64,000 nucleotides of DNA from the NCBI GenBank assembly GCA_016432425.1, contig CP066688.1, positions 84,368 to 148,367 of the forward strand. The letters run 5' to 3'. Positions 5,104 through 59,086 of the stretch are shown here, piece by piece. How positions within the stretch are numbered: position 1 is the stretch's first letter; every line of letters starts with the position of its first letter. A program made the translations under genes and the position numbers. Source of the DNA: Candidatus Daviesbacteria bacterium (GTDB taxonomy: Bacteria; Patescibacteriota; Microgenomatia; Daviesbacterales; UBA10151). Under the pieces are notes generated by a model. The model was not told the DNA's origin. It ran no database searches and saw only the letters and a program-made list of their open reading frames with translations.

Positions 5104-6041
5104 TATATAAATTTCCTCTTCAGGAAAACTATTCCATAAGTCATAACTGAGATAAATGACATCAAAGGATGCAGCAACCAAGCTTTATTTCTGGTTTCTA
5201 AATAACCTATTAACCCTTCAATCAAAGGGCCAATAAAAGTTACGCAATAAATAATACTATAAACAAACTTTATTGGCGAAACCCCCTCTAACCAGGTACG
5301 TTTTTTTTCTTCCTTTCTGTTTAAAAACTTGTTGCCAATTTTAAGTCTTTTAGAAATAAAATCTCCCAAGGATGAGATATGGTCATGATAAATGCCATAC
5401 CCGGGGACCCGGGCAAACTTGCGAAACCCTTTTTCCATGGCAAAAAAAGAAAAATTTGATTCTTCAAATTTAGGTTTATATAACCCCACCCCTTCTATCA
5501 CTTTTTTATTCCACAAAAAACCATTAGCGCCTAAAGGATAAACTGAACCCTGAGGAATAGTATATTCAATATAGCCATTTTTATTTCTTTGCCTTAGGTT
5601 AGCAGCCAAACATCTGGAGAAGGGATCGGCAATATGAATTAACATGGAATAAGCATTAAAAATATTGTCATGTTCCCGGGGGAAATACAAAGATTCCACC
5701 CCAAATAAATCCGGATCTTTTAAAAAGGGTTTGACCATGACAGTCAACCAATCTTTTTTGATAATTTCATTATCAGCATCCAACAATACTATCACTTCCC
5801 CTTGAGAATGAATAATCCCCAAAGACTTAGCACTTTCCGGATCTCTTTGGGGATTATCAATCACCTTGGCCCCAAAATCTTTGGCTACCTTTCTGGTTTC
5901 ATCTTCTGACCTACCATCCACTACAAATATTTCCACCAGATTCTTGGGATAATTTTGCTTTTTAATGCTTGCTAAACAAATTGGCAGTTGTTTGGCGGCA
6001 TTATAAGTGGGGATGATAAAACTAACTCTAGAATTTTTCAT
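5103..6041 (-). CDS. GT2 family glycosyltransferase with C-terminal TM segments
   Basis: SFIIPTYNAAKQLPICLASIKKQNYP...VVDGRSEDETR...LLDADN (GT-A fold with a DxD motif). Confidence 0.8.
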   Translation of the reverse strand: MKNSRVSFIIPTYNAAKQLPICLASIKKQNYPKNLVEIFVVDGRSEDETRKVAKDFGAKVIDNPQRDPESAKSLGIIHSQGEVIVLLDADNEIIKKDWLTVMVKPFLKDPDLFGVESLYFPREHDNIFNAYSMLIHIADPFSRCLAANLRQRNKNGYIEYTIPQGSVYPLGANGFLWNKKVIEGVGLYKPKFEESNFSFFAMEKGFRKFARVPGYGIYHDHISSLGDFISKRLKIGNKFLNRKEEKKRTWLEGVSPIKFVYSIIYCVTFIGPLIEGLIGYLETRNKAWLLHPLMSFISVMTYGIVFLKRKFI

Positions 6042-35181: not shown

Positions 35182-36183
35182 TTAGATGTTATAAATCTCC
35201 GGCTTATATTTATCTAAATTCTCGCGAATGTAGTCAATTGTCTCTCGAAGCCCCTCTTCAAAAGTAGTTTCTGGTTGCCAGTTAGTTAAATCAACTAAGT
35301 TTTTATTGGAACAAATCAATTTCCAAACTTCACTTTTTTCTGGCCTAATTCTTTCATCGTCTGTAATTACTTCTTTTTTTATATTAGTTAACTTACAAAT
35401 CATCTGATAAATTTCTTCGATACTGTAACCTTTACCCACTCCAATATTGAAAACTTTCCCTATAGTTTCGTCGGTGAGAGCAATTTTAATCATGGCTTTG
35501 GCGCTGTCTCTGGCAAAGGTATAATCCCTCACCGGTTTTAATGAACCAAGTTTAATTTTTTTAATTTTATCTGATAAGATTTGTGAAATTATTGTTGGTA
35601 TAACGGCTCTGGCTGATTGTCTGGGTCCAAAATTATTAAAAGGCCTGACTATGGTAACAGGCAGGCCAAATGATAAAAAGTAGCTCATGGCTGCCTTATC
35701 AGACCCGACCTTCGAAGCAGCATACGGGGATTGAGCTTGCTGGGGATGGTTTTCATCCATGGGTTCATAAAGGGCGGTCCCATAGACCTCACTGGTCGAG
35801 GTATTAAGAAAACGTTTCACTTTTGCTTTTCTGGCCGCTTCTAAAAGATTAACCGTTCCTAAAACATTTGTTTGAAAATAACTACTGGGTGCGATATACG
35901 AATAAGGTATGGCTATCAAAGCTGCCAGATGAAAAATAATTTCTTGATCCTCTAGAAGTCTTTCGCAAAAATGCGGGTCATTGATATCACCCAAAACCAC
36001 CTCAAGGTTTTTATGGGATTTTAAATTTTTAATATTTTCTAGAAGACCCCATTTACCTTCAGAATTGTAGTAAACCAAGGCTCGTACTTTAGCTCCTTGT
36101 TTTAGTAATTCTTCCACTAAGTGGCTGCCAATAAAACCATCAGCGCCGGTCACTAAACATCTAACGTTTTTAATATCTTTCAT
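35182..36183 (-). CDS. NAD-dependent NDP-sugar dehydratase/decarboxylase-like SDR (UXS/4,6-dehydratase-like)
   Basis: LVTGADGFIGSHL...NTSTSEVYG...YAASK. Confidence 0.75.
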   Translation of the reverse strand: MKDIKNVRCLVTGADGFIGSHLVEELLKQGAKVRALVYYNSEGKWGLLENIKNLKSHKNLEVVLGDINDPHFCERLLEDQEIIFHLAALIAIPYSYIAPSSYFQTNVLGTVNLLEAARKAKVKRFLNTSTSEVYGTALYEPMDENHPQQAQSPYAASKVGSDKAAMSYFLSFGLPVTIVRPFNNFGPRQSARAVIPTIISQILSDKIKKIKLGSLKPVRDYTFARDSAKAMIKIALTDETIGKVFNIGVGKGYSIEEIYQMICKLTNIKKEVITDDERIRPEKSEVWKLICSNKNLVDLTNWQPETTFEEGLRETIDYIRENLDKYKPEIYNI

Positions 36184-41303: not shown

Positions 41304-42680
41304 ATGAAGAACATACAAAAAGCAATAAAATCTTTCTCCCAAAAAAAGATCCTCGTCGTCGGTGATTTAATGCTAGATTTATATACCTATGGCACCGTTA
41401 ATCGTATATCCCCTGAAGCACCTGTACCAATTTTACTAAAAACTGACGAAAAATACTCACCTGGAGGCGCAGCCAATGTAGCTAATAATTTAAGGGGATT
41501 AGGAGCGGAAGTAGCTGTTTGTGGAATAGCAGGTGAGGATTCTAACGGGGAGAGATTATTGGTTTTATTAAATGAACTAGGCATTGATACCAAAGCAGTC
41601 ATTAAAACTCCAGATTTTCCGACTACATTAAAACAAAGATTAATCGCCGAAAATCGCCAAATAGTTAGGGTCGACGAAGAAAACATCCAAGAATTAAATC
41701 CTAAGGAGCAAAAAGATATTTTAACTTGGATAGAATTTTTAGTTGGTAAATACGATGCCATCATTTTGTCAGATTATGCCAAGGGTGTATTCACTAAAAA
41801 CTTAACATCTGAAATTATTAAATTAGCAAAAAAACATAATAAGTTGATAACTGCAGATATCAAACCTGTCAACAAATCGCTATTTAAAGGCGCCCATCTA
41901 ATTTTTCCGAATTTGAAAGAAGCAGAAGAAATGACCGGAGGTAACACCATTAATGAAATGGGGGCTCATCTAGTGAAATATTTTAACTGTGATGTAGTAA
42001 TCACTAAAGGAGCAGAAGGAATGGCAGTCTTTCAGCGCGACAACATTTATTTTGAGATACCTGGAAGAAAAATTGAAGTTTTTGATGTGAGTGGTGCAGG
42101 GGATACAGTAATAGCCGTTATTACGCTAGGTTTAATTAGTAATCTGAACCTCAACGACTCTGCCAATTTGGCAAATTTTGCAGGTAGTATCGTAGTACAA
42201 AAAGCTGGTACTGCCTCTATTAAGCTAGAAGAACTAGAGGCTTACATCAACATAGGTAAGTATCATATTGATAATGTTGAAATAGTACCAAAAGTTTGGG
42301 GGTATGAGAAATGGCTAGAAAATAATAGCCGGTATTGCTCTAAATTGCTTTTTTTAAAACAGGATTATCAATGTAGTTTGCACTATCATAAAGTTAAAGA
42401 TGAGCTATTTTTGGTCACCTCTGGACATGTCCGATTTGAACTGGGAAAAGAGATTATACATCTGATGCCTGGTAGTTTTATCAGAGTTCCTCCTAAAACT
42501 TTACACCGATATAGAGGAATTGTAGACTCAGAAATACTGGAAGTAAGTACTCACCATAGCGAAAAAGACTCCTACAGATTAGAACCCAGTAGAAAAATCG
42601 AAATAGACAATACTAAATCTTTTCATAAGGCTGTGATTGTTGACAGCAAGGCTATCATTCCAGATGAAAGTACACTTTAA
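41304..42680 (+). CDS. Fusion protein. N-terminal D-glycero-beta-D-manno-heptose-7-phosphate kinase (HldE domain I, PfkB family). C-terminal PMI-type-II-like cupin domain replacing the usual adenylyltransferase domain.
   Basis: Kinase domain: ILVVGDLMLDLYTYG..RISPEAPVP...GGAANVANN...DVSGAGDTVIAV. Cupin domain: WGYEKW...SLHYHKVKDELFLVTSGH...LMPGSFIRVPPKTLHRYRG...ILEVSTHHSEKDSYRLE. This aligns motif for motif with the AlgA/ManC C-terminal PMI cupin (WG..HHHR.EHW.VVSG...GES..IP.G..HRL.N.G...EV..G.Y..EDDI.R.ED). Confidence 0.8.
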   Translation: MKNIQKAIKSFSQKKILVVGDLMLDLYTYGTVNRISPEAPVPILLKTDEKYSPGGAANVANNLRGLGAEVAVCGIAGEDSNGERLLVLLNELGIDTKAVIKTPDFPTTLKQRLIAENRQIVRVDEENIQELNPKEQKDILTWIEFLVGKYDAIILSDYAKGVFTKNLTSEIIKLAKKHNKLITADIKPVNKSLFKGAHLIFPNLKEAEEMTGGNTINEMGAHLVKYFNCDVVITKGAEGMAVFQRDNIYFEIPGRKIEVFDVSGAGDTVIAVITLGLISNLNLNDSANLANFAGSIVVQKAGTASIKLEELEAYINIGKYHIDNVEIVPKVWGYEKWLENNSRYCSKLLFLKQDYQCSLHYHKVKDELFLVTSGHVRFELGKEIIHLMPGSFIRVPPKTLHRYRGIVDSEILEVSTHHSEKDSYRLEPSRKIEIDNTKSFHKAVIVDSKAIIPDESTL

Positions 42681-43239
42681 AACGCCCCAGAAAACCCTGG
42701 TCAAAGCTGTTTTCTTAGATCGCGATGGAACTATCAACAATAATCAAACGGGGTATACTTATAAAATTAACGATTTTGTCTGCCTACCAGGAGTCATAGA
42801 ATCATTAGTTAAGTTTTCAAAGACTTCCTACAAAATTATCATTCTTACTAACCAATCTGGAATAGGCAGAAAATATTTTAGTTTCTCTCAATTCCATAAA
42901 TTAAATAATTGGATGCTAAAAGAGTTTAAAAAAAATAATGTTAGAATAGATAAAGTTTTTTTCTGCCCTCATCATCCACAAAATAACTGCTCTTGCCGCA
43001 AACCAAAACCTGGTCTAATAATACAAGCTGTACAAACTTTTGGAATATCTTTAGAAGAAAGTTGGCTAATCGGGGATGACGAAAGGGATATTATTTTAGC
43101 CAAAACAGTTAACTTACGGTCAATTAAAATAGGCGCCAAGATAAGTAGAAAATTAAAGTTAGAGCCCAATTATTATGTAAAAAATTTGCCGGAAGCCTTG
43201 GATATAATTACCAATCAAGATAGACTAAGTTTGTTATAA
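42664..43239 (+). CDS. gmhB: D-glycero-D-manno-heptose 1,7-bisphosphate phosphatase (HAD-IIIA family)
   Basis: KAVFLDRDGTIN, ILTNQSGIGR, CxC RKPKPG, LIGDDERD. These are the GmhB/HisB-N family signatures. Start chosen at MKVHFK. Confidence 0.75.
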   Translation: MKVHFKTPQKTLVKAVFLDRDGTINNNQTGYTYKINDFVCLPGVIESLVKFSKTSYKIIILTNQSGIGRKYFSFSQFHKLNNWMLKEFKKNNVRIDKVFFCPHHPQNNCSCRKPKPGLIIQAVQTFGISLEESWLIGDDERDIILAKTVNLRSIKIGAKISRKLKLEPNYYVKNLPEALDIITNQDRLSLL

Positions 43240-44510
43240 GCATTTATATGAGCAAGCAAATCTTTCATATTATAAGTGGTCACATCAGTCATTTTAGGTT
43301 TCGGCAAACCCATTATTTTATACATGTACGGTAGAACCTCTTTAACCTTTAACTCTGACATACATAAATTATCTATACAGGGAGACCTCCTGGCATTATA
43401 AGTATTAATACAAGGATCACAAGCTAAACCTGCAGACAAAGAAACGTTTCTGGTACTTAAGGGGGCATATAATAAGGGAGTTTCCGGACCAAATAAAGAA
43501 ATTATATAAATTGGAGTCATGGCAGCAAAATGGGCCGGGCCGCTATCATTGGTTACCATTAAATGCGAGATGTTGTAAAGGGTAAGCAATTCATAAATAT
43601 CAGTTTGTCCGGCAAAATTTATACAAAGAGGGTGATTAATTTTATTTTCTACATCTTGAATATAATTAATCTCTTTGGCAGTTCCAATTAAAATAATTGC
43701 CGTGTTGCCTTGTTTTAATATTTCCTGAGCTAATTTAGCAAAATACTCTTTTGGCCATTTTCTTTCGGGAACAAAATCACTGGCATGAGTGTTAAAAATA
43801 ACTAACTTCATGGAAGGATTAATTTTCGGATTTAAAGATTGTATTTTCTTCCATAAATTTTCAATTTCATTTTTAGAAGATTTGTAGCGGGGTACCCTCA
43901 GGTTACCAGTTAATCTCTTTTTTAATAGAGGTATAGAATTAAATGGCTCTTTAATAGATTTTGCTAAAGTTAAAAAAGCTAAACTGGTATGTAAATAATG
44001 ATTATAGATTACCTTATGAGTAAAAAAATCTCCTCTATACAATCCTTCCATGTGGTATTTATAAAACCCAATATGGATGGGTGATTTTATCAAATAACCC
44101 AGTATAGCTGATATTCGAGAGAATAATTCAAAATCTACAATTACATCGATTTTTTGATCTCTTAACATTTTAGCTGCTTTCAAAGTATCAAATATCAAAT
44201 GGGGAATTGACGAATTATTAATTAAGTAGATATTTTTTTCTGGAAAAGATTTTAATATTTTAACAATCTCCTCATTTCCTGAGAATGTTAAAAAATACAA
44301 TTGCGCCTCTGGATATTCTTTTTTAATAAAATTAATTGCCGGGAAAGATAAAATTGTACTACCCATTTCCGAAATTTTAATAAATAAAATTTTTTTTATT
44401 TTCTTTGGCTCTCTTCTTCTTCTGGTAACTCTAGACCATTGGCTTAAAAACCAGCAAATTCTGGAACCGATAATTCTGTCTATATTTCTGACTCTATTAG
44501 GATCGATCAT
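43215..44510 (-). CDS. GT9 family glycosyltransferase (heptosyltransferase-like)
   Basis: ILFIKISEMGSTILSFPAI at the N-terminus. C-terminal VTNDSGPAHFAAMTPIYIISLFGP, which is the WaaC/WaaF-family signature. Confidence 0.75.
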   Translation of the reverse strand: MIDPNRVRNIDRIIGSRICWFLSQWSRVTRRRREPKKIKKILFIKISEMGSTILSFPAINFIKKEYPEAQLYFLTFSGNEEIVKILKSFPEKNIYLINNSSIPHLIFDTLKAAKMLRDQKIDVIVDFELFSRISAILGYLIKSPIHIGFYKYHMEGLYRGDFFTHKVIYNHYLHTSLAFLTLAKSIKEPFNSIPLLKKRLTGNLRVPRYKSSKNEIENLWKKIQSLNPKINPSMKLVIFNTHASDFVPERKWPKEYFAKLAQEILKQGNTAIILIGTAKEINYIQDVENKINHPLCINFAGQTDIYELLTLYNISHLMVTNDSGPAHFAAMTPIYIISLFGPETPLLYAPLSTRNVSLSAGLACDPCINTYNARRSPCIDNLCMSELKVKEVLPYMYKIMGLPKPKMTDVTTYNMKDLLAHINAYNKLSLS

Positions 44511-44570: not shown

Positions 44571-45434
44571 ATGCAGCCAAAATGTCCATTTTGCAAGAGT
44601 AGAAATAACAAAAAGTTAAGACAACTAACTTACAACTGCGTCTTTTTTTGTCACAACTGCCGATTAGGTTTTCAATATCCACTTTTAAAAAAGAACTCCA
44701 TAAAAAAATACTATAAAGAATCTATCTATCCGCAAGTATGGGGAGACCATACGGGTTCTTTTGGTGAAATGAAAAAAATAACTTACCAGTGGATTTTCAA
44801 ACACTTGGGTAAAGGTCGCGGTGAAAAATTATTAGATATTGGCACTGGATATGGTTTTGCCCTCTTAGAAGCCAAGAGGAAAGGATACCAACCAGTTGGT
44901 ATAGAACCATCACCTGAATTATCTAAAATCGCAAGCAAAGCTCACGGTGTAAAAGTGATTAATGATTTTTTTGAGAATGTAAAATTTCCCATAGAAAGTT
45001 TTCATCTCGTTTCAATGTTTGATTCAATAGAGCATATGCTAAACCCACAGGCCAGTCTTAAAAAGGCAGCTGCGCTGGTAAAACCTGGGGGTTTTTTAGT
45101 TATTACCACACCTGATATTAATAGTTTGTCAGCAAAATTATTCTATAAATACTGGTTCCATTTAAAAAATGAGCACTATTATTATTTCAATAAAGAAATC
45201 TTGAAAAATCTCCTATTAAAAAATGGGTTTACTGTCAAAATTAGTATGGGGCAAAAAAGACCTTTAACGCTAAAGTATATCGAGAATCATTTCCGAATTT
45301 ATCCCATCCCCTTTTTATCTATTACATTTCGCCATTTATTATCTTTGGTTCCTACAAAGATCAAAAATAAAATATTCACTATTTATGATGGTAATCTTTT
45401 TATGGTCGCTCAAAAATCCGTGAAAATAGCATAG
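44571..45434 (+). CDS. Class I SAM-dependent methyltransferase with N-terminal Zn-ribbon, paralog of 18965..19786
   Basis: CPFCKS...CHNCRL, then LLDIGTGYGF...HLVSMFDSIEHM...VKPGGFLVITTP. Confidence 0.75.
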   Translation: MQPKCPFCKSRNNKKLRQLTYNCVFFCHNCRLGFQYPLLKKNSIKKYYKESIYPQVWGDHTGSFGEMKKITYQWIFKHLGKGRGEKLLDIGTGYGFALLEAKRKGYQPVGIEPSPELSKIASKAHGVKVINDFFENVKFPIESFHLVSMFDSIEHMLNPQASLKKAAALVKPGGFLVITTPDINSLSAKLFYKYWFHLKNEHYYYFNKEILKNLLLKNGFTVKISMGQKRPLTLKYIENHFRIYPIPFLSITFRHLLSLVPTKIKNKIFTIYDGNLFMVAQKSVKIA

Positions 45435-51662: not shown

Positions 51663-52528
51663 AATCTTTTTCCTGTTAAATATCGAAAATATGCCCTGGG
51701 AAAACGTAAGGCAGAAAAAAAAGAAAAGATTAGCCCTTGGAAACCGTCCAATATTCCTTTATGACGAAACAAAGTCAGTAAAAACCACCAGCTAGATTTA
51801 ATAAAATAAAAATTGATCAGCTGCCAGATATTTTTCCCCACCTTAGTTTTTTCAAGATCATCAGCAATTAAATTAATATAGCGGCTATTTCTTTTTAAAT
51901 ACCTTTCAAAAGTTGGGTCAGCCATATGATAAAGATCATTTTGCAGCCAGCCTACTTTACCATCAACCGTAATCTGCTCGTGAACATCAAGACAGGGGAA
52001 ATAAGCTTTATTTTTACGGACTAACCTAATCACTCCATCCGGATAAACTCCGCCATAGCGTAAATATTTCCCCAAGAAATAATTTAGACGGGGTATAAAA
52101 AAAGCAGCATATTCCTTTGAACTATCGCCAATGCGGCCATCCCGCTCTTCCAGTAATTTTTGATGCCTCAAAAAGAGTCTCCTATTTTTTAAATCTCGCT
52201 GGTAAATTTCCACCTCTTCATTTGTCATCTCAATTACCTTTCTTATTTCCTGTGCCAAAGCTTTAGAAACTCGCTCATCCGCATCAAGCTGTAAAATCCA
52301 TTCATTTTGAGCCAAATCCAGCGCCTTTTGTTTGTTGATATGAAAAATCGGCGGGTTGTCTTTGATTAAAACTTTGGCTCCAAAGGAGCGGGCAATCTCA
52401 ACTGTTTTGTCAGCAGAGCTTCCGTCTACAATCACAATCTCATCGGTAATTTCTTTAATAGAATTCAGACAAGCCGGCAGATTTTTTTCTTCGTTAAAAG
52501 TGGCCAGGACTACTGATAATTTTTTCAA
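51659..52528 (-). CDS. GT2 family glycosyltransferase
   Basis: LSVVLATFNEEKNL...IVDGSSADKT...QLDADE. Confidence 0.75.
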   Translation of the reverse strand: MKKLSVVLATFNEEKNLPACLNSIKEITDEIVIVDGSSADKTVEIARSFGAKVLIKDNPPIFHINKQKALDLAQNEWILQLDADERVSKALAQEIRKVIEMTNEEVEIYQRDLKNRRLFLRHQKLLEERDGRIGDSSKEYAAFFIPRLNYFLGKYLRYGGVYPDGVIRLVRKNKAYFPCLDVHEQITVDGKVGWLQNDLYHMADPTFERYLKRNSRYINLIADDLEKTKVGKNIWQLINFYFIKSSWWFLLTLFRHKGILDGFQGLIFSFFSALRFPRAYFRYLTGKRL

Positions 52529-54192
52529 AACTGCCCTCCTTCAATCATGACAAAAGCCGGCTCTCCGCTAGGAAAGTCTACCTGATCTAAGATTTTAACA
52601 TTTTTTGGGGATGCCTCACCTGACATGATAAATAAAGTTCCGGGTGAATTTAGCTCTGGCAGAGTTGCTTCATGAAATTCGTATTTGTCAAAAGACCTCA
52701 CCGTCCCAAAATTAAATTGATCCCGGGGAGAAAGTGCTGCTTGGGGCTGATACTTTCTGGGATCGTATTGTTTGTAAAATAACACCAAAATATAGGGCTG
52801 GTCGAAGCGGTCGGTAATTACTACTTTTTCGTATTTACTTTCATATTGATTTAATTTTTGAACCATTTCGGAAAATCCATATTCCCAAGCCAAAGGGTAT
52901 CTTTGAGGATAAATTATGTAATAAGACTGCATAAAACGAACAAATTCAAAAACCAATACAGTCGTAATTAACCCCACCCCTAAAATCCGCCAGTGACTTT
53001 TTAACCAATTAATAGTTTCCCCCATCCCCAACCCCATTATTAAGGTTAAAGGAACGACCAAATTAAGTGCCCGCAGGGCATGAGGAGTCTGGTAAGTCAT
53101 TGCTGAGGCCAGGGGAGCAACCAAAATCCAAATCAGCAGAATTTTTTTATGAGCGAATTGCTTTTTAATTACAGCTATTCCTCCCATTGTTAAAAACAAA
53201 AATTCAATTAAATAAAACTGGCCAACTTCGGGTACTTTATTGCGAATTAGCGGATCACCATTAATAAATAAAAAGCTACCGCTAAAATGGTCCAGGTAAT
53301 GGCCTAAAAATGCCGGAATAAAGGCAGTTAATTTATTGTGCAAAGAAACGCTTAATTTTGACTTAGGGTTCTCATGCTCTCCCCTGAGCTGCTGAATACG
53401 GGAAATAAGTCCTTGGTCAGAGAAAAAAGTGAGCCCGGTGAATCTGGCGCTACCGGTGCCGGAAAGAAATTGCCCGGTTAAAGGCAGCGTCAAAATTAGT
53501 AACAAAACTACTATAATAACCAGCTTAAATTTATATTTTAGTGAAGGGAACCTTCTTTCCTTTAAAAATAAAGATCGCACTGCTTTAATTAGCGGCTGAT
53601 AGTAAAAAATTAATAACATTAACCCCAATACCGGCACTATTAATCTGGGACTTTGGTAGGTATACATCGAAGCCAAAAACGAAATGAGACTAAATAAAAG
53701 TAAGCCATAATTTTTTAAACCTTTGATAAATAGTAATATACCCAAAGTGATAAAAAAGGTAGCTACATTAGTTTCCCAACCTCCCCGGGAAAATTGCAGG
53801 TGCCAGGGGGAAATCGCCAAAAGGAAGGCACTCCAGAGACCAAAAATTTTGTGTTGAAAAATTTCTCTGCCCAGAAGAAAAGTTAGATAAACAGTTAAAA
53901 TCCCCAAAAGGGCTGAAGGGAGCCTGACTGCCCATTCATTTAAACCAAAAAGGGCGACAAATGGCATGACCATATAAAAATACAGGCCTGGTTTCCAGTC
54001 TCCGAAGGATTTAAAAGTCAAAGGAAGAAAACTGCCATATTCATCCTTGCCGGTTTGCAAAAGTGAATAAGCATTGTAACCAATTGAAGCCTCGTCAGCA
54101 TTTAAACCGGCCGGAAAATTATTTAAAGCAACCAGCCGCAAAACTGCTGCCAAGACAATAATTAAAATTAGTATTATTTTTGGTTTAACCAT
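52525..54192 (-). CDS. GT-C glycosyltransferase, GT39/PMT_2 (ArnT-like) family, tandem paralog 1 of 5
   Basis: LNADEASIGYNAYSLLQTGKDEYGSFLP...PFVALFGLNEWAVRLPSA...ISPWHLQFSR. Confidence 0.75.
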   Translation of the reverse strand: MVKPKIILILIIVLAAVLRLVALNNFPAGLNADEASIGYNAYSLLQTGKDEYGSFLPLTFKSFGDWKPGLYFYMVMPFVALFGLNEWAVRLPSALLGILTVYLTFLLGREIFQHKIFGLWSAFLLAISPWHLQFSRGGWETNVATFFITLGILLFIKGLKNYGLLLFSLISFLASMYTYQSPRLIVPVLGLMLLIFYYQPLIKAVRSLFLKERRFPSLKYKFKLVIIVVLLLILTLPLTGQFLSGTGSARFTGLTFFSDQGLISRIQQLRGEHENPKSKLSVSLHNKLTAFIPAFLGHYLDHFSGSFLFINGDPLIRNKVPEVGQFYLIEFLFLTMGGIAVIKKQFAHKKILLIWILVAPLASAMTYQTPHALRALNLVVPLTLIMGLGMGETINWLKSHWRILGVGLITTVLVFEFVRFMQSYYIIYPQRYPLAWEYGFSEMVQKLNQYESKYEKVVITDRFDQPYILVLFYKQYDPRKYQPQAALSPRDQFNFGTVRSFDKYEFHEATLPELNSPGTLFIMSGEASPKNVKILDQVDFPSGEPAFVMIEGGQF

Positions 54193-55825
54193 CTCCTCTT
54201 TCCACTAATTTAAAGACTTCTTCTCCATTTAGAAATTTAACTCTATTTAAAATATTAAATTCTTTAAACGGCACAATATCTTTATCCGGCAGCTCATCCG
54301 GACTGCCCACAAATAAAGTATTTTTTAGATTTCGATCGGCCGGCCAATAAAGATGACGGAATTCTATCTTGCCGATTTTTTTGACCGTCCCAACATCACT
54401 ACCAAATTGATCCAAATTGTATTGGCCTTGGAAATTTAATCTGTCAGGATTGTAGAATAAATAATAAATATAAGGTTGCCCGTAAACGTCAGTGACTATA
54501 ATTTTTGGATAATTATTTTGAATTTTGTAGACTTGTTCAAATGTTTGCTTGTATCCATACAACCAATAGTTAGAATATTCAACAGGAGCATGCACAAAAT
54601 AACGGTCTAAATAAATAATAAAATTGGAAAGCATGACAACTATGACAACTCCATAAACTAAAGACCGCCAACTTACCCTTAACCTATTGATTAGAGTTAA
54701 TAAATAATACAGCCCGGCCGCTTCCAATATAACATAAGGGACTACCATGTTCAGGGCCCGTAAAATGCTAATCAAATCCCGCGATAATACAGCTGGCAGA
54801 GGTGCTATTAAAAGCCAACCAAATATTAAACCCACTCCCTTTTGATTTTTAAGCAAATGGAATATTCCCAGCGGAATCAATAAGGCACTATAATAGTAAA
54901 AAAATCCCAAGTCCGGAATCCGATGTCTTTCTTCTAAAGTTCCTTTGACAAATAAGGTGGATGGGGAAAAGTAAATGGAATATCGCTCCACAAGTCCCCG
55001 GGCATAACTCCACCACTCTCCATATAGAATTTGAAACTGGGCACTGTTAGCAGGTAACTTACTCTCTAAAGAGAGTTTTTGAATTTCATTCTGAGAACGC
55101 TGATAAGCAAAAAAATTAAAAGTTTTAAGTCTTGTTGCCTGGCCGCTAAAAAGAGTTACCATTAGTAGCAATAAAAAGACTGTTATTACCACAGCTGCCG
55201 GCATTAAACTACGCCAGCGAATTTGACGATAACTGGTTATTACCAAAAGTAGGATAAACAGTGGGACAAACAAACGGGATGCTTGATAAGTAAATAAGGA
55301 TAAACCAAAAATTAAGGCAGAAAAGATGAGCAGTTTTCTGCTCTTTAATCCCTTTAAAAACAAATATGCCCCCAATACATTCATGGTTAAAGCTGCATTT
55401 GCCTCAAAGGCAGCCCGGGAAAATTGCAGGTGCCAGGGGGAAATCGCCAAAGTAAAACTGGCTAACAAACCCAGAGTTTTGTTTTGCAAGAGTTCTTTAA
55501 CCAAAGAAAAAATCAACCAGACTAAGGCTACCCCCAAGATGGCTGAAGGGAGCCTGACTGCCCATTCATTTAAACCAAAGAGGGCGACAAAGGGAACTGT
55601 CAAATAAATATAAGCTGCCGGTTTCCAGTCACCAAAAGATTTTAAGTTGTCAGGTAAGAAATTACCATATTCATCACGGCCAGTTTGGGAAATATCATAA
55701 GCATTAACTCCAATTGAGGCCTCATCCCAAGTCAGCCCCGGAGGATTGGAATTAAGTTGCCAAAATCGCAGTACTACACTGAGTAAAATAATTAGCACTA
55801 AAGAGTATTTTTTAACTAGTTCCAC
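54185..55825 (-). CDS. GT-C glycosyltransferase, GT39/PMT_2 family, tandem paralog 2 of 5
   Basis: LTWDEASIGVNAYDISQTGRDEYGNFLP...PFVALFGLNEWAVRLPSAILGVALVWLIFSLVK. Confidence 0.75.
   Translation of the reverse strand: MELVKKYSLVLIILLSVVLRFWQLNSNPPGLTWDEASIGVNAYDISQTGRDEYGNFLPDNLKSFGDWKPAAYIYLTVPFVALFGLNEWAVRLPSAILGVALVWLIFSLVKELLQNKTLGLLASFTLAISPWHLQFSRAAFEANAALTMNVLGAYLFLKGLKSRKLLIFSALIFGLSLFTYQASRLFVPLFILLLVITSYRQIRWRSLMPAAVVITVFLLLLMVTLFSGQATRLKTFNFFAYQRSQNEIQKLSLESKLPANSAQFQILYGEWWSYARGLVERYSIYFSPSTLFVKGTLEERHRIPDLGFFYYYSALLIPLGIFHLLKNQKGVGLIFGWLLIAPLPAVLSRDLISILRALNMVVPYVILEAAGLYYLLTLINRLRVSWRSLVYGVVIVVMLSNFIIYLDRYFVHAPVEYSNYWLYGYKQTFEQVYKIQNNYPKIIVTDVYGQPYIYYLFYNPDRLNFQGQYNLDQFGSDVGTVKKIGKIEFRHLYWPADRNLKNTLFVGSPDELPDKDIVPFKEFNILNRVKFLNGEEVFKLVERGDG
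55496..55615. repeat. 120-nt tract identical to 57126..57245, inside adjacent tandem PMT_2 paralogs (gene-conversion tract)
   Basis: Read directly from the sequence: tttaaccaaagaaaaaatcaaccagactaaggctacccccaagatggctgaagggagcctgactgcccattcatttaaaccaaagagggcgacaaagggaactgtcaaataaatataagc occurs twice. A 38-nt identical tract also links paralogs 1 and 2, at 53784..53821 and 55413..55450. Confidence 0.85.
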
Positions 55826-55841
55826 TATCTAATTGTACAAA

Positions 55842-57449
55842 TTACAGCTCGACGATATCAAATGCCGGATCTCCATTTAAAAATTTAATTTGTTGCAAGA
55901 GTTTTCCTTGATCAAAATTAGTCGGGCTGGTAATTAATAAACACCGCTCAGTTTCTTTACAGTTAGCTTTTTGTTTAACTTCCCAATCGTTAAGGAAGTA
56001 ATATTTGCTGAAACGGTCCACCCAATACCAATCACTACGGAAGTATCTAATTAAATTTGGATCGCTCAAATATTTTGCAGGATCGTATGGCAGATAAAAT
56101 AACAAAAACTCGTGCGGCTCACCGTAAGCTTTAGTCAGGTAAATTTTATGATAATTACTACCTTCTTTTTTAATAAACTCGACTGCTTCTTTATACCCAT
56201 ACTGCCAGGCCCAAGAATAGTTTTTTCTATAACTACCGCTGTAATTTTGCCAAAAGAGGACCAAACTAATTAACAAACCAGCAATTATAATTAAGTTTAA
56301 CCCAATTTTAAATCGGGAAGCCTGGTTGGCTAATCCGGCAACGGCATAAGCACTAATAAATGCTAAAGGTACAGTGGCGGTGAGGCTCCGCAAAGCATGG
56401 GGGGCATCCCGGGTCACCGCTGCCGGAATAAAAGAAAAAAAGAGCCACATTAAAGTAATCCACTGCCATTTTTTTCTTTCTTTTAAAAACAAAAAAACAC
56501 CATAGATTAAAAAAGGTAAGAGCAATGGATAAACCAACCCTATTCCCGGAATACTGAATTGAAAATTAGAGCCACCGTTTAAAAAAAGAAAATTAGGGTG
56601 AAAATGACTAAAATAATTTTGTATTACCTGGGGGATAAAATAAGTTACTTTGTTGTAGACCAAAGTTACGGCAGGAGGGGGCAAAGCAGAACTTCCCCGC
56701 AATTCATTAATCTGATTAATTGCACCTTGGTCTAAAATCGTGGTCCATTTATATCGGGCAGAGGAATCTTGCAACAAAGCCTTAGGCAAAGCCAGTGCAA
56801 AAAAAGTCAAAAAAATAACTAATGACATAACAGTAATTTTTTTATATTTTGCCAGTTGCGGATAATGAATTAACCCTAAACTTAAAACTAGCAGTGGAAT
56901 AATGATCCGGCTGCTATTGTAAGAAAAAATGGTTAAACCAAAAGTAATGGCACTAAACACTAAAAAGTATTTACTCTTTACACCTCTCACAAAAAAATAT
57001 ACCCCTAAAGTAGTTAAAAAAAGTGATAGCTGAGCCTCCAGAGCAATTCGGGATAAAATAATTGGCCAGGGCAGGACAGCAGCTACAAAAGCGGCCCAAA
57101 GAGCGGTTTTTTCTTCGCTCCATTGTTTAACCAAAGAAAAAATCAACCAGACTAAGGCTACCCCCAAGATGGCTGAAGGGAGCCTGACTGCCCATTCATT
57201 TAAACCAAAGAGGGCGACAAAGGGAACTGTCAAATAAATATAAGCCGGCAGTTTATAATCGCCATAAATTCTAAAAGTTAAAGGCATAAACTCTCCCCAT
57301 TCATCCCGTCCGGTTCTTAAAATTGAAGCAGCATTATATCCAATAGAAACTTCATCCCAATTTAATGAAGGCGGCAGCTGTGGTAGCTGCCAAAACCGCA
57401 ACACGGCAGCCAAAATTACAATCATGATTAACAATAATTTTGCTCTCAT
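55842..57449 (-). CDS. GT-C glycosyltransferase, GT39/PMT_2 family, tandem paralog 3 of 5
   Basis: LNWDEVSIGYNAASILRTGRDEWGEFMP...PFVALFGLNEWAVRLPSAILGVALVWLIFSLVK. Confidence 0.75.
   Translation of the reverse strand: MRAKLLLIMIVILAAVLRFWQLPQLPPSLNWDEVSIGYNAASILRTGRDEWGEFMPLTFRIYGDYKLPAYIYLTVPFVALFGLNEWAVRLPSAILGVALVWLIFSLVKQWSEEKTALWAAFVAAVLPWPIILSRIALEAQLSLFLTTLGVYFFVRGVKSKYFLVFSAITFGLTIFSYNSSRIIIPLLVLSLGLIHYPQLAKYKKITVMSLVIFLTFFALALPKALLQDSSARYKWTTILDQGAINQINELRGSSALPPPAVTLVYNKVTYFIPQVIQNYFSHFHPNFLFLNGGSNFQFSIPGIGLVYPLLLPFLIYGVFLFLKERKKWQWITLMWLFFSFIPAAVTRDAPHALRSLTATVPLAFISAYAVAGLANQASRFKIGLNLIIIAGLLISLVLFWQNYSGSYRKNYSWAWQYGYKEAVEFIKKEGSNYHKIYLTKAYGEPHEFLLFYLPYDPAKYLSDPNLIRYFRSDWYWVDRFSKYYFLNDWEVKQKANCKETERCLLITSPTNFDQGKLLQQIKFLNGDPAFDIVEL
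57126..57245. repeat. Second copy of the 120-nt identical tract (partner of 55496..55615)
   Basis: Read directly from the sequence. Confidence 0.85.
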
Positions 57450-59086
57450 TGATTAGTGGGTACTAAACGATACAATATCTTGCCGGAAGGTGAATAAACA
57501 TCCAAAATTGACTGAACCTGAGAGGGAAAATCTTCCGGCTCTGAAACTATCAAGGCATCTTTCCTGAGACTGTCTTTTTTGCGCCAATCTATTCCCTCAA
57601 AATAAAAATTGCCCAAATTCCAACTCTCCAGCTGATCTACATATAATTTATTGGATTTTTCATATCTTAACCAATTCGGGGAAGATTTTTGAAAAACTTT
57701 GGGGTCCATTTTCTCGTAAAAAGCGACAAATATTTGCGGTTCAGTAAAATGTTTAGAGATAACAATCTGGCTGTAGCGATCCTTCACAGATAAAATTTTT
57801 TCAAAGACTGTATCATAACCAAAACGCACATTATCAATTGGTCGTTGAGGTAATTTAATAAAGTAAAAGTGTAAGAAAAAAATAAACTGGGTAAACAGTA
57901 TCACTGTGACAATTCTTCCCCATGGTAAATTGGCAAATTTAGTCTTTAGGTAATCAATTAGACTAGCTGCACCAATCGCCGATATTATAACGGTTAGAGG
58001 GAGAAATGTCGGCACCCGATTAGCATTCAGACTTCCGGTAGCCAAAGCTGCACCTACTGGAGAGACTAAAAACCACCAAATTATTATTTCTTTATTAGCT
58101 AGTTTTTTAAAGAAAATTTCCTTAATAGCAAATATCCAAAAAATAAGCTCTACTGTATAAAGCAGCGCAAACCTGGGAAAATTTAAATAGGTGTTATCCG
58201 GCCTTCCTCCGGTAAAAAAGAAAGTAGGAGAAAAATAAGACAGGTAATTTTCTGTTAAATTATTTTTGATAAATAAAAATTTATTGTCAAAAATTTTATC
58301 TAATAAAGGAGGCAGTGGAGAAGTACCTTTGGATTTAAAATAACTCATGATTTGTTCACTGCTAAAAATTCCTACATCGGAAGCTCTGGTGGAAATGTTT
58401 CCCCAATTAATAAGGAGGGGGGATAAGAAAATAAAAAGACCCAAACTTAAATAAATAATTCGCTTTTTAGATTCTGCCCGCAGAAAAAATGCACCTAATA
58501 TAAACAATACCAGCAAGACTCGAAAAGAGTGGTAGGTATAAAAAGTTAACCCCCAAAATATAATGGTGGGAAGAAAAAATTTGTTTTCTTTTTTTAATTT
58601 TAGAAAAAATAATAACCCCAAACTGAAAGTTAAAATTCCTAATCCACCTTCCCAGGCAGTACGGGAAATTTGTATAGACCAGGGGGAAATAGCCAGCAAA
58701 AATGCTGCCCACAAAGCAATATTTTCTTTTTGGAAAAGTTCCTTAGTTAAAAAATATGCTACCAAAACAGTGAGTATGCCTACCAGGGCAGCAGGTAACC
58801 TGACCGAGACCATGTTCAAATCAAAAATGAGTAGCGAGGGAACTGTTAAATAAGTATAAAGAGGCGGCTTAAAATCTCCAAACCCCCGAGGATTAATCGG
58901 TAAAGTTTCTCCCCATTCATCCTTGCCGGTTTGCAAAAGCGAATAAGCGCTGTAACCTTGTTGAGCTTCATCACCGGTAAAACCATTGGGGAATTTATCC
59001 AAACTAATTAGTCTGACAGCTGCAGCTAAAATAATTATTAACAATAAGATAATTTTACTCGTAGAGAAGATTTGCTTAATTTTCAT
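57446..59086 (-). CDS. GT-C glycosyltransferase, GT39/PMT_2 family, tandem paralog 4 of 5
   Basis: FTGDEAQQGYSAYSLLQTGKDEWGETLP...ISPWSIQISR. Confidence 0.75.
   Translation of the reverse strand: MKIKQIFSTSKIILLLIIILAAAVRLISLDKFPNGFTGDEAQQGYSAYSLLQTGKDEWGETLPINPRGFGDFKPPLYTYLTVPSLLIFDLNMVSVRLPAALVGILTVLVAYFLTKELFQKENIALWAAFLLAISPWSIQISRTAWEGGLGILTFSLGLLFFLKLKKENKFFLPTIIFWGLTFYTYHSFRVLLVLFILGAFFLRAESKKRIIYLSLGLFIFLSPLLINWGNISTRASDVGIFSSEQIMSYFKSKGTSPLPPLLDKIFDNKFLFIKNNLTENYLSYFSPTFFFTGGRPDNTYLNFPRFALLYTVELIFWIFAIKEIFFKKLANKEIIIWWFLVSPVGAALATGSLNANRVPTFLPLTVIISAIGAASLIDYLKTKFANLPWGRIVTVILFTQFIFFLHFYFIKLPQRPIDNVRFGYDTVFEKILSVKDRYSQIVISKHFTEPQIFVAFYEKMDPKVFQKSSPNWLRYEKSNKLYVDQLESWNLGNFYFEGIDWRKKDSLRKDALIVSEPEDFPSQVQSILDVYSPSGKILYRLVPTNQ

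Follow-up and report, generated by a model that had tools for sequence, protein, structure and literature searches.

Aneurinibacillus thermoaerophilus makes GDP-D-glycero-alpha-D-manno-heptose for its S-layer glycoprotein glycans through GmhA, HddA, GmhB and HddC. Its pathway is a precedent for a monoderm that makes heptose for a surface glycan other than LPS, and, as proposed for the locus described here, the product is D,D-heptose formed without an HldD step. The enzymes differ: A. thermoaerophilus has a normal GmhA, a guanylyltransferase of the NTP_transferase family and, for the alpha anomer, a GHMP kinase, whereas here the kinase is of the PfkB type and GmhB of the beta type.

The classical LPS-core heptose pathway shares with this locus a PfkB-type anomeric kinase (TIGR02198, 340 bits), a beta-type HAD phosphatase with a Zn-binding Cys/His loop, and a GT9 enzyme with a GT-B fold and the donor-side motifs; sister cassettes from CPR bacteria and DPANN archaea extend the likeness with an HldC-type nucleotidyltransferase (NTase) and HldD. 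However, SIS-fold GmhA is missing here, and the kinase carries a cupin. It carries no NTase, which in relatives is joined to GmhB; the window (the whole 64-kb stretch of DNA analysed) has neither NTase nor HldD, and Kdo-lipid A would not be available as an acceptor in this organism.

ADP-heptose genes are already known from Paceibacteria and archaea (PMC9166423, PMC11461863). Commentaries on Tang et al. (PMC11573728, PMC11461863) describe multidomain heptose biosynthetic enzymes (HBEs), the didomain HldE (kinase-NTase) and a tridomain isomerase/kinase/nucleotidyltransferase, and report HBEs from archaea and viruses, the viral ones without a phosphatase. Consecutive steps are fused in one polypeptide there as here, but neither the kinase-cupin nor the NTase-GmhB architecture is among the three HBE types that they list.

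The cupin itself compares best with cupin isomerases (PF01050; 7zvy and 7zvm; the D-lyxose/D-mannose isomerases 7nzo and 2y0o), which share its single-domain metal cupin fold, its HxH..E..H motif and the 2-ketose to manno-aldose chemistry proposed for it. Identity is only about 20%, however, and the cupin described here has motifs of its own and heptose enzymes as partners, not those of mannose metabolism or glycolysis. That a cupin can stand in for a different isomerase family has a precedent in the cupin-type phosphoglucose isomerase (PGI) of Euryarchaeota (PF06560), described as 'an unrelated cupin-based enzyme' alongside the general PGI, PF00342 (PMC7304191).

The locus and its kinase

The window comes from a MAG of Candidatus Daviesbacteria, a member of the CPR with a tiny genome, as the first-pass annotation had guessed. 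That annotation placed a kinase-cupin fusion, gmhB and a GT9 gene at 41304-44510; its coordinates are exact, the three genes are intact, and the PfkB, NF006506 and PF01075 matches, the PfkB and PF01075 ones with E-values well outside the range of chance, bear out their identities (Table 1). Its view that the surroundings serve non-LPS glycosylation also held: the locus is a non-LPS glycosylation island, with eight PMT_2-type GT-C, 11 GT2, three GT4, nine methyltransferases and one Wzx-like flippase.

Table 1. Heptose module and adjoining genes, in window coordinates.
Feature	Position	Strand	Basis
PMT_2-type GT-C membrane glycosyltransferase, 675 aa	39275..41302	+	Pfam PF13231, 39 bits; 44% identical orthologue in syntenic L007
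Predicted bifunctional kinase-cupin protein, 458 aa	41304..42680	+	100% match to P0001, 'cupin domain-containing protein [Candidatus Daviesbacteria bacterium]'
HldA/HldE-domain-I-type PfkB kinase domain, aa 8-315	41325..42248	+	TIGR02198, GGAANVA, DVSGAGD
Metal-type cupin domain, aa 322-436	42267..42611	+	PF01050, invariant columns, model, operon/fusion context
C-terminal tail, about 22 aa	42612..42680	+	absent from most homologues; resembles degenerate HAD domain start
Stand-alone gmhB, 191 aa, predicted beta-type heptose-1,7-bisphosphate 7-phosphatase	42664..43239 (ORF from 42637)	+	NF006506
Long-type GT9 glycosyltransferase, 431 aa	43215..44510	-	PF01075, 78.3 bits, E 7e-22
SAM-dependent methyltransferase	44571..45434	+	PF13489, 92 bits; divergent from GT9

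The GT-C gene is probably the first of the kinase-cupin transcription unit, since its stop codon abuts the kinase-cupin start. A second genome has a syntenic 21-kb locus (L007) in which the orthologues are full-length, with identities of 59% (kinase-cupin) and 69% (GT9), so none of the three genes, GT9 included, is a pseudogene. Both loci lack an NTase at these 59-69% identities and, judged by sequence, the heptose module is maintained across the two genomes. The pairing of GT9 with a methyltransferase is also kept in L007, where a 293-aa Methyltransf_23 gene adjoins GT9; the methyltransferase is a candidate member of the module.

The kinase domain matches PfkB with 157.5 bits (E 6e-46, aa 14-305 of the 458-aa ORF) and TIGR02198, the model for HldE domain I, with 340.4 bits over profile positions 2-314 of 315, slightly under the cut-off of 345. 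Its motifs GGAANVA (aa 54) and DVSGAGD (aa 261) are in place, and hexose kinase models reach at most 83 bits, against 340 for the heptose-specific one. The predicted reaction, very probably, is the conversion of D-glycero-D-manno-heptose-7-P to the beta-1,7-bisphosphate.

The cupin and the genes it travels with

The C-terminal cupin scores 34.1 bits to Cupin_2 and 26.0 to PF01050 (type II PMI C-terminal; gathering score 23.6), and its metal motif HxH..E..H provides the putative ligands H360, H362, E367 and H401. The domain is under very strong constraint, as far as an alignment can tell: 32 columns are invariant across 34 homologues 45-66% identical overall, all 32 are kept in the window, and mean column identity is 73%. 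The invariant motifs are PKxWGxEKWxxNN, YCxK, QxSxHxH and STxH..D..R. In the PDB the closest folds to the predicted model (pLDDT 95.4) are Thermococcus mini-cupin 'PMI' structures (E 1.5e-8, TM 0.8) and characterised D-lyxose/D-mannose isomerases. The Thermococcus structures, 7zvy and 7zvm, owe their 'PMI' label to annotation, and their paper gives no enzyme assay.

The cupin is present in 232 GTDB species and accompanies NDP-heptose genes in three settings: CPR bacteria, DPANN archaea and many viral contigs. The CPR layout is kinase-cupin, NTase-GmhB, HldD and GT9. On four separate CPR-type metagenome contigs (L002/L003, L004/L005, L006 and L008) the kinase-cupin is followed by an NTase-GmhB fusion; in two of the four HldD is genuine by TIGR02197 (400 and 384 bits against 274.6), while GT9 is present in three and GmhA in none. 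A typical DPANN operon has a stand-alone cupin, HldD (252-278 bits against 274.6), kinase (394 against a cut-off of 345), GmhB and NTase.

We surveyed 80 GTDB loci with the cupin, judging the absence of GmhA within about 10 kb of each. Kinase fusions make up 31 of them, in both domain orders and including a cupin-kinase-NTase triple fusion. Of the 49 stand-alone cupins, 30 have an HldA kinase no more than 6 kb away, and no heptose genes are near seven of the 26 that have at least 4 kb of flank on each side. SIS proteins occur in only three of the 80 loci. In the CPR loci L015 and L018 the kinase-cupin gene has, at 6-7 kb, a distant SIS protein (TIGR00441, 56-86 bits against a cut-off of 209), and L050 holds both a cupin cassette and a GmhA-like one. 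In classical bacteria gmhA is often unlinked. The L102 operon combines a GT9 53% identical to that of the window, GmhA (SIS_2; 134 bits against the E. coli enzyme and 179 on TIGR00441), an HldD-like protein, a 328-aa kinase without a cupin, and an NTase; GmhA there fills the slot that the cupin holds in DPANN operons.

Viral contigs with the cupin number 357. Among the best 80 of these, 46 have the kinase and NTase alongside, 37 of the 46 also have an HldD-like SDR, and none has GmhA; the phosphatase was not assigned to a recognisable gene in these cassettes, in line with the commentaries on viral HBEs. The cupin-kinase-NTase proteins of the Bdellovibrionota loci L081 and L087 mirror the layout of the tridomain HBE. 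The isomerase module of that HBE, whose fold the commentaries do not name, is reportedly GmhA-like.

Going by gene content, the cupin belongs to the conserved set of heptose-operon genes in CPR, DPANN archaea and viruses. The first-pass annotation saw the fusion correctly and treated the cupin as an appendage; in fact no part of the module tells more, and the cupin is a probable stand-in for GmhA. That annotation also took heptose genes and GT9 without LPS to be exceptional, a view contradicted by the literature precedents (PMC9166423, PMC11461863), by the spread of the cupin through GTDB, and by a search of 5.8 billion proteins in which the best 120 matches listed are all kinase-cupin fusions.

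Because the cupin travels with NDP-heptose genes, with GmhA almost never near, and because L102 is complementary, we predict that it converts sedoheptulose-7-P to D-glycero-D-manno-heptose-7-P, as a probable non-homologous substitute for GmhA. No published description of a cupin-type sedoheptulose-7-P isomerase was found in the literature, in which Tang et al. (Science 2024) was represented by commentaries.

It is unlikely, though it deserves some weight, that the cupin is not the isomerase and that a SIS-type GmhA lies elsewhere in these genomes, the cupin serving in epimerisation or tailoring of heptose or NDP-heptose, in sensing, or in regulation of the kinase. Non-isomerase metal cupins (the CapF epimerase domain, KdgF, oxalate decarboxylase) match the fold at similar E-values, and the distant SIS proteins of L015 and L018 and the double cassettes of L050 point the same way. 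However, whenever the cupin is fused, it is fused to the kinase, which consumes the isomerase product; this holds for both domain orders and for the triple fusion. The cupin is also the sole conserved gene left once the other steps are assigned in DPANN operons and, the phosphatase excepted, in viral cassettes, and in L102 GmhA takes its slot beside a kinase without it. It passes the threshold of the PMI catalytic domain and not those of RmlC/FdtA-type epimerase models. The Zn-cupin domain of CapF acts on a UDP-keto-sugar; a keto-sugar is essential to such chemistry, and the cassettes have no dedicated dehydrogenase in common.

An ordinary PMI, converting fructose-6-P to mannose-6-P from which the kinase and GmhB make beta-mannose-1-P for an ADP-mannose-type donor, is very unlikely. 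The PMI catalytic domain is the only family-specific Pfam match of the cupin, the nearest solved structures are labelled PMI, and heptose-pathway enzymes are reported to tolerate manno-hexose analogues. Against this, the heptose-specific models give 340 bits for the kinase and 176 for the phosphatase, when no hexose kinase model exceeds 83, and sister cassettes have HldD at or above its equivalog cut-off. HldD acts on C6 of heptose, which is no stereocentre in a hexose.

GmhB and the lost nucleotidyltransferase

The gmhB gene overlaps the upstream kinase-cupin gene by 17 nt. Its product, a HAD-IIIA protein, scores 176 bits to the beta-type model NF006506, slightly under the cut-off of 178, against 137 to the alpha-type NF050049, and the catalytic and Zn motifs DRDGT, TNQSG, CPHH..CSCRKP and GDDERD are intact. 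With the HAD half of the NTase-HAD fusion in L006 it shares 52% identity and also the inter-domain linker KTP..VKAVFLDRD; by these resemblances it descends from an NTase-GmhB fusion minus its NTase half, a secondary loss at this locus. The tail of the kinase-cupin may be a scar of this kind of rearrangement: a tblastn comparison of the L002 NTase-HAD protein (aa 162-199) with the tail frame gave a weak match (E 0.016, 'SFHKAVIVDSKAIIPDE' against 'SFVSAVILDRDGVINEE').

As the first-pass annotation had noted, the window has no NTase. Pfam scans of nearly every ORF of at least 110 aa found no PF01467, PF00483 or SIS domain; 57446..59086, with eight TM-like segments, lay outside the scan, and the window ORFs without a Pfam match are all polytopic membrane proteins. 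An unfiltered hmmsearch with the HldC profile of all window ORFs of at least 50 aa gave a best E of 0.66. Neither the 64 kb nor the adjoining 8 kb on the left nor the L007 locus has an NTase, HldD or GmhA, and the matches listed in a profile search of 5.8 billion proteins include no NTase from the 820,589-bp contig of the window. Although the absence stands, it reflects secondary loss and is not specific to heptose, because the 72 kb of window and left flank (about 8 kb) lack any NTase despite encoding 15 Leloir glycosyltransferases, a LegB-like 4,6-dehydratase and an NDP-sugar C-methyltransferase. With none for any of the 15, the NTase genes must sit elsewhere in the genome. Stand-alone HldC genes are common in CPR, and it is reasonably likely that an unlinked NTase makes NDP-heptose, most likely with ADP.

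It is improbable that the NTase has gone from the genome altogether, the pathway ending at heptose-1,7-bisphosphate or heptose-1-phosphate as end metabolites or unconventional donors, and GT9 using another donor or the sugar phosphate itself. Such truncation would fit the deletion of the NTase half of the ancestral fusion, the missing HldD, and an NTase-less arrangement conserved between genomes only 59% identical in the kinase-cupin. However, GT9 keeps the donor motifs NDSGPAH, GPETP and RKWP in alignment with WaaF, its L102 relative shares an operon with an HldC-type NTase, and we know of no GT9 that uses a sugar phosphate. The lack of NTases for every Leloir enzyme nearby and the frequency of stand-alone HldC also speak for an unlinked NTase.

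GT9 and the proposed pathway

GT9 and gmhB are convergent, their 3' ends overlapping by 25 nt. The best PDB matches of the GT9 model (pLDDT 88.3) are WaaF (1psw, Foldseek E 3e-19), a Veillonella GT9 and WaaC. It is longer than the classical enzymes, with an N-terminal helix and a C-terminal 4-Cys cluster, and has 'EMGS' at the position of the catalytic 'GD' of WaaC, WaaF and the 3tov protein. Because of this replacement, and because it fails all the LPS heptosyltransferase equivalog cut-offs (WaaC, WaaF and WaaQ), we can only infer its donor and acceptor. Of the 21 GT9s of at least 80 bits in L029-L088, loci mostly from DPANN archaea, which have no LPS, 20 match the seed from this long subfamily best. 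Among the relatives of the window GT9, two at 40% identity and one at 55% lack heptose genes in their vicinity. GT9 is likely to be an ADP-heptose-dependent heptosyltransferase with a non-LPS acceptor.

Heptose genes with GT9 are the classical signature of LPS inner-core biosynthesis in a diderm. That ordinary explanation is extremely improbable for a CPR bacterium, as the Kdo2-lipid A and CMP-Kdo modules are absent from all eight CPR classes surveyed (Table S5, PMC9166423). It also sits badly with the failed cut-offs and the DPANN operons that the same GT9 subfamily accompanies, and the genes around the module are of GT-C, GT2 and flippase type, with no lpx, kds or waa in Pfam scans of ORFs over the 64 kb.

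In the proposed non-LPS pathway the cupin, as a metal-dependent aldose-ketose isomerase, would probably take the place of the unrelated SIS-fold GmhA, using the chemistry of the fructose-6-P/mannose-6-P reaction of PMI-type cupins. The fused PfkB domain, going by its family, would then very probably phosphorylate O1, and GmhB would very probably remove the 7-phosphate to leave beta-heptose-1-P. Activation would fall, with somewhat less assurance, to an unlinked NTase, relatives carrying the HldC-type enzyme fused to GmhB. Without HldD, the pathway would yield D,D-heptose rather than L,D-heptose. The long-type GT9 would likely move it onto an acceptor other than Kdo-lipid A, candidates being a lipid-linked oligosaccharide, a glycolipid or a protein, for further processing by the surrounding GT2, flippase-like and GT-C enzymes. 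On balance, we lean towards reading the module as a whole as a CPR form of the beta-D-manno-heptose pathway that supplies a surface glycan other than LPS.

The heptose genes of the window

The first-pass annotation had placed a kinase-cupin fusion, gmhB and a GT9 glycosyltransferase side by side at 41304-44510, and Pfam and NCBIfam scores located all three genes exactly there. Each is intact, and the syntenic locus L007, from a second genome, carries full-length orthologues of the kinase-cupin protein (59% identical) and the GT9 (69%).

Features of the window and of related loci (positions after a locus name belong to that locus)
Feature	Coordinates	Strand	Remarks
Kinase-cupin	41304..42680	+	458 aa; PfkB 157.5 bits; C-terminal cupin
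GmhB	42664..43239	+	beta-type; NF006506; overlaps the kinase-cupin gene by 17 nt
GT9	43215..44510	-	431 aa; PF01075 78.3 bits, threshold 22
NDP-hexose C-methyltransferase type	8778-10052	+	Methyltransf_13/14, 192 bits
LegB-like NAD-dependent 4,6-dehydratase	35182-36183	-	TIGR04180 424.6 bits, cut-off 475
Large polytopic proteins	2312-4402; 6041-8731	-
Five tandem genes	52525-60737
Left extension of the window	L097 12075-22091
Neighbourhood of a GT9 relative	L101 5592-19571
355-aa protein	L006 11307-12374
Second kinase/nucleotidyltransferase clusters	L050 16185-18314; L048 14312-17542
Viral cassette examples	L136 6545-9123; L174 3075-9253; L181 7452-8357		IMG/VR contigs (among L103-L182)

The kinase domain covers positions 2-314 of the 315 in TIGR02198, the model for HldA and HldE domain I, with 340.4 bits, 4.6 below the cut-off of 345. 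The next best kinase family scored 83 bits, and the PfkB signature motifs GGAANVA (aa 54) and DVSGAGD (aa 261) are present. Homologous kinases reached 394 bits (stand-alone DPANN kinases) and 377 bits (L102, a locus around a GT9 relative) on this model. A bifunctional HldE was ruled out, as the C-terminus is a cupin and not PF01467, and the HldE model NF008454 gave 255 bits against a cut-off of 521, matching only positions 3-313 of 475. The fusion protein belongs to a large family: in a search of 5.8 billion proteins the best 120 matches were all PfkB-cupin fusions (120/120), 405-476 aa long and 45-66% identical, with named sources that were Paceibacterota, Patescibacteria or 'bacterium' MAGs.

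GmhB scored 176 against 178 on NF006506 and 141.9 against 149.6 on TIGR00213, compared with 136.7 against 250 on the alpha-type model NF050049. Its HAD motifs and zinc loop are complete: DRDGT (19), TNQSG (62), CPHH (101)..CSCRKP (109) and GDDERD (137).

A cupin as the proposed isomerase

The cupin domain scored 34.1 bits on Cupin_2 and passed the PF01050 gathering threshold narrowly (26.0 against 23.6; aa 328-425, profile positions 12-113 of 116), and most of the best 120 kinase-cupin homologues have a precomputed PF01050 match. The putative HxH..E..H metal ligands of the window protein are H360, H362, E367 and H401; these columns (H37, H39, E44 and H78 of the domain) are invariant in 34 aligned sequences. 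Altogether 32 columns of the 114-residue domain are invariant over the 34 homologues, many of them Lys, Arg, Asn, Ser or Thr.

The AlphaFold model of the cupin (pLDDT 95.4) found its nearest PDB folds in the Thermococcus mini-cupin 'phosphomannose isomerases' 7zvy and 7zvm (E 1.5e-8, TM about 0.8), with D-lyxose/D-mannose isomerases close behind. As the phosphomannose isomerase (PMI) label of 7zvy is an annotation, from a describing paper without an assay, and as the non-isomerase cupins CapF, KdgF and oxalate decarboxylase were also among the matches, the fold alone identifies no more than a metal cupin with manno-type aldose-ketose isomerases as its nearest neighbours. Sequence-only PDB searches, with the single sequence or a profile, were not diagnostic, returning generic cupins with quercetinase first.

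Four separate CPR-type metagenome contigs (L002/L003, L004/L005, L006 and L008) have a gene for a fusion of an HldC-type nucleotidyltransferase with GmhB after the kinase-cupin gene, with a true HldD in two (TIGR02197, 400 and 384 bits) and a GT9 of 351-354 aa in three. Since the kinase, the nucleotidyltransferase-GmhB fusion and HldD were all found, every step to ADP-L,D-heptose in the CPR cassettes has a recognisable gene except the first, that of the isomerase, and the sole unassigned conserved module of these cassettes is the cupin. GmhA is the SIS-fold sedoheptulose-7-P isomerase. Pfam scans of the window ORFs found no SIS or SIS_2 domain, and phmmer with E. coli GmhA (a query scoring 404 bits on NF001628) gave no match in the window at E <= 10. 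We predict that the non-homologous cupin replaces GmhA in this role, as a functional equivalent and not as a member of the SIS-fold family (TIGR00441). The proposed conversion of sedoheptulose-7-P to D-glycero-D-manno-heptose-7-P is the seven-carbon homologue of that of fructose-6-P to mannose-6-P. Unlike a type II PMI, the cupin is partnered by heptose genes and not mannose genes, and a survey of 80 genome loci and 80 viral loci turned up no fusion to NTP_transferase.

In L006, the closest relative that still has the nucleotidyltransferase-GmhB fusion, a 355-aa protein without a Pfam or NCBIfam match is encoded between the kinase-cupin and fusion genes. Contig CAYHBZ010000001.1 (550,381 bp) carries two kinase-cupin paralogues about 55 kb apart (L019 and L024), one adjoined by a nucleotidyltransferase-GmhB fusion and a GT9-like gene and the other accompanied by a true HldD (TIGR02197, 410 bits); the label 'Gammaproteobacteria', here as in comparable binchicken-style MAGs, seems unreliable.

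When one genome of each GTDB species was scanned, 232 species had the cupin, and we surveyed the context of the best 80 loci by phmmer, with flanks of about 10 kb. The cupin is fused to the kinase in 31 of these, mostly as kinase-cupin and in some as cupin-kinase (L033 and L040); two Bdellovibrionota proteins (L081 and L087) are cupin-kinase-nucleotidyltransferase triple fusions. It stands alone, at about 125 aa, in 49, with an HldA-type kinase within 6 kb in 30 of the 49. The typical operon of Woese-, Pace- and Nanoarchaeota encodes cupin, HldD, kinase, GmhB and nucleotidyltransferase, often with a GT9 upstream; its kinase scores 394 bits against the cut-off of 345 and its SDRs 252-278 on TIGR02197 against 274.6. 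Among the 26 stand-alone cupins with at least 4 kb of flank on both sides, seven lie in an unrelated context. GmhA-like SIS proteins occur in only three of the 80 loci, in no case beside the cupin. Two of the three are remote members of the fold, with 56 and 86 bits on TIGR00441 (cut-off 209), and the third belongs to a second, separate kinase/nucleotidyltransferase cluster of L050. Such a second, divergent cluster lies a few kb from the cupin-type operon in both L050 and L048, loci labelled as archaeal MAGs (Methanosarcinales and Woesearchaeota), which suggests that a single genome has two heptose or heptose-like pathways side by side.

The operon in L102 encodes a GT9 53% identical to that of the window, GmhA, an HldD-like protein, kinase and nucleotidyltransferase, with gmhB divergent. 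Its GmhA has a SIS_2 domain and scores 134 bits to E. coli GmhA and 179 bits on TIGR00441, and its 328-aa kinase ends without a cupin. GmhA here occupies the position that the DPANN operons give to the cupin, and we rank this locus as the best single piece of evidence that the cupin may be a stand-in for GmhA.

Viruses provide a third, independent setting, with 357 viral contigs in IMG/VR encoding a heptose-type cupin. In 46 of the best 80 the cupin lies within a few kb of a short PfkB-like kinase and an HldC-like nucleotidyltransferase, and 37 of these 46 sets also include an HldD-like SDR; neither GmhA nor GmhB was found in the best 80 of the 357. Viral heptose gene sets without the phosphatase have been described (PMC11461863), and the cassettes here agree. 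Fusions occur in viruses as well: nucleotidyltransferase-cupin in L181 and L182, and in L174 an HldE-like kinase-nucleotidyltransferase adjoining the cupin and an HldD-like SDR. Across 1.84 billion 50%-identity representatives, the cupin profile matched 2,305 clusters at E <= 1e-10, with lengths that fit the stand-alone, N-terminal-fusion, C-terminal-fusion and triple-fusion forms.

A Daviesbacteria locus without a nucleotidyltransferase

The window locus departs from the CPR cassettes. Its GmhB shares 52% identity with the HAD half of the fusion in L006 and keeps the inter-domain linker KTP..VKAVFLDRD, with the nucleotidyltransferase half (about 160 aa) gone. The last 22 aa of the kinase-cupin protein (SFHKAVIVDSKAIIPDE, 42612-42680) weakly resemble a degenerate HAD start (E 0.016) and look like a decayed copy of the beginning of the GmhB domain (LVKAVFLDRDGTINNN, 42637-42720), which starts 40 nt downstream. 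The tail may be a scar of the rearrangement that removed the nucleotidyltransferase domain. HldD is also absent from the window, where the two SDRs score 79 and 93 on TIGR02197 against a cut-off of 274.6. This Daviesbacteria sub-variant, with nucleotidyltransferase and HldD shed from the locus, is new. The layout without a nucleotidyltransferase recurs in L007, where synteny takes in the GT9, kinase-cupin, PMT_2, methyltransferase and LPG_synthase_TM genes; this suggests that the state is being maintained and is not a recent decay.

The absence of a nucleotidyltransferase, already noted from the sequence alone, held throughout the window. Pfam scans of nearly every ORF of at least 110 aa in the 64 kb, 57446..59086 excepted, gave no PF01467 or PF00483 match, and an unfiltered hmmsearch of the window ORFs with the HldC profile found nothing better than E 0.66. 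A cryptic nucleotidyltransferase among the five ORFs without a Pfam match or 57446..59086 was ruled out, each having 6-10 TM-like segments. With phmmer, an NTP_transferase seed weakly matched the 44571-45434 methyltransferase (13 bits; E 8e-4, from a tiny database), which we set aside as Rossmann-fold noise.

The whole window and at least 8 kb to its left form one glycosylation island. The window encodes at least eight PMT_2-type GT-C, 11 GT2 and three GT4 glycosyltransferases besides the GT9, nine SAM methyltransferases (one an NDP-sugar C-methyltransferase type), two LPG_synthase_TM flippase-like proteins and a Wzx-like flippase, a LegB-like 4,6-dehydratase, another SDR, YdjC, a GDSL esterase and a polysaccharide deacetylase. 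Four of the five tandem genes have PMT_2 matches, the fifth being 57446-59086. Past the left edge, the extension in L097 adds a 1,020-aa AftD-like GT-C, a carbamoyltransferase and another PMT_2 protein. The C-methyltransferase and the LegB-like dehydratase indicate that a modified deoxy or branched sugar, at least one, is also among the products of the island. Two large polytopic proteins with 8-10 TM-like segments end in an F5/8 type C (discoidin, carbohydrate-binding) domain. Promoter and terminator motifs were as numerous as in shuffled sequence, so their scan was silent on operon boundaries.

No nucleotidyltransferase of any family was found in these 72 kb (the window and its 8-kb left extension). 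Since the island has 15 Leloir glycosyltransferases and several NDP-sugar-modifying enzymes, this absence characterises the island as a whole and is not specific to the heptose module. In a search of 5.8 billion proteins, the HldC profile placed none of the best 120 matches listed (213-235 bits) on the 820,589-bp source contig; stand-alone HldC genes are common in CPR.

The GT9 model (pLDDT 88.3) has a GT-B fold, with WaaF (1psw, E 3e-19), the 3tov protein and WaaC (2h1h) as top PDB matches, and its donor domain aligns with WaaF through RKWP, NDSGPAH and GPETP. The protein fails the equivalog cut-offs of the LPS enzymes: 46.7 against 185.3 for WaaC (TIGR02193), 99.9 against 134.6 for WaaF (TIGR02195) and 67.5 against 170.2 for WaaQ (TIGR02201). 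The catalytic residue of the N-terminal 'GD' motif is the Asp, Asp13 in WaaC. In contrast to WaaC, WaaF and the 3tov protein, the window GT9 has SEMGS (aa 47-51) at this position, with Ser instead of the Asp; Glu48, which lies two residues upstream, does not vary among 45 members of the subfamily. Just beyond the WaaF-aligned region lies a near-invariant cluster of C364, C367, C378 and C383 (ACDPCINTYNARRSPCIDNLC), which may be a metal site. It may resemble the iron-finger of the protein heptosyltransferase TibC; TibC gave no match to the subfamily profile at E <= 10 and came only 41st in Foldseek.

This GT9 belongs to a different, longer subfamily, 22-24% identical to the cassette GT9s. Members occur widely in Woese- and Nanoarchaeota, Torokbacteria and some Proteobacteria. 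Of the 21 GT9s with 80 bits or more in L029-L088, loci mostly from DPANN archaea, 20 match this subfamily best as seed. A metagenome scan with the window GT9 returned only eight loci, and the three relatives at about 40% identity had no heptose genes in the flank available. The GT9 of L101, 55% identical to that of the window, has as neighbours a GT2, an SDR and five radical-SAM genes, B12-binding or plain, and heptose genes are absent within 10 kb; the long subfamily is thus not always tied to a local heptose cassette.

We propose that the cupin would convert sedoheptulose-7-P to heptose-7-P, the PfkB domain would phosphorylate this to the beta-1,7-bisphosphate and GmhB would yield beta-heptose-1-P. 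An unlinked HldC-type enzyme would then form NDP-heptose, most likely ADP-D,D-heptose, for transfer by the GT9 to a non-LPS acceptor. Alternatively, if the genome has no HldC or HldD anywhere, kinase-cupin, GmhB and the long GT9 might be a complete, nucleotide-independent heptosylation module, in addition to the cupin representing a novel class of sedoheptulose-7-P isomerase. The GT9, with its extra four-Cys cluster and without the catalytic Asp, would then use beta-heptose-1-phosphate or the 1,7-bisphosphate directly, or else the sugar phosphate would be passed to a polyprenyl-phosphate carrier for the co-transcribed GT-C enzyme. We consider this very improbable and favour activation by an unlinked HldC-type enzyme.

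Heptose in lineages without LPS

That a lineage without LPS has heptose genes is in itself no novelty. ADP-heptose genes were noted in Paceibacteria (PMC9166423), and heptose biosynthetic enzymes have been reported in archaea and viruses (PMC11461863, PMC11573728). In the survey of PMC9166423, KEGG module M00064 came out as incomplete in each CPR class, and it took TIGRFAM matches to rescue it; none of the eight CPR classes had the Kdo2-lipid A or the CMP-Kdo module (Table S5). Full-text literature searches, with Tang et al. 2024 (Science) outside their scope, returned no paper linking a cupin to heptose and sedoheptulose together, or to phosphoheptose isomerase. What is new is the predicted replacement of GmhA by a cupin, together with the novel kinase-cupin and nucleotidyltransferase-GmhB fusion architectures. 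GmhA is generally regarded as the first enzyme of every heptose pathway. Antibiotic development targets it, and homology searches for heptose enzymes include it, reportedly also those of the cross-kingdom survey that underlies the work on NDP-heptose as an immune agonist of ALPK1.

The Daviesbacteria genome poses the question of where the activating enzyme is, or whether one is needed. If the cupin is confirmed as the isomerase, it would be a new enzyme class in a much-studied pathway and would complete otherwise 'incomplete' heptose pathways in CPR, DPANN, Bdellovibrionota and hundreds of viral contigs. Heptose-bearing surface glycans would then be a common trait of LPS-less ultra-small episymbionts.
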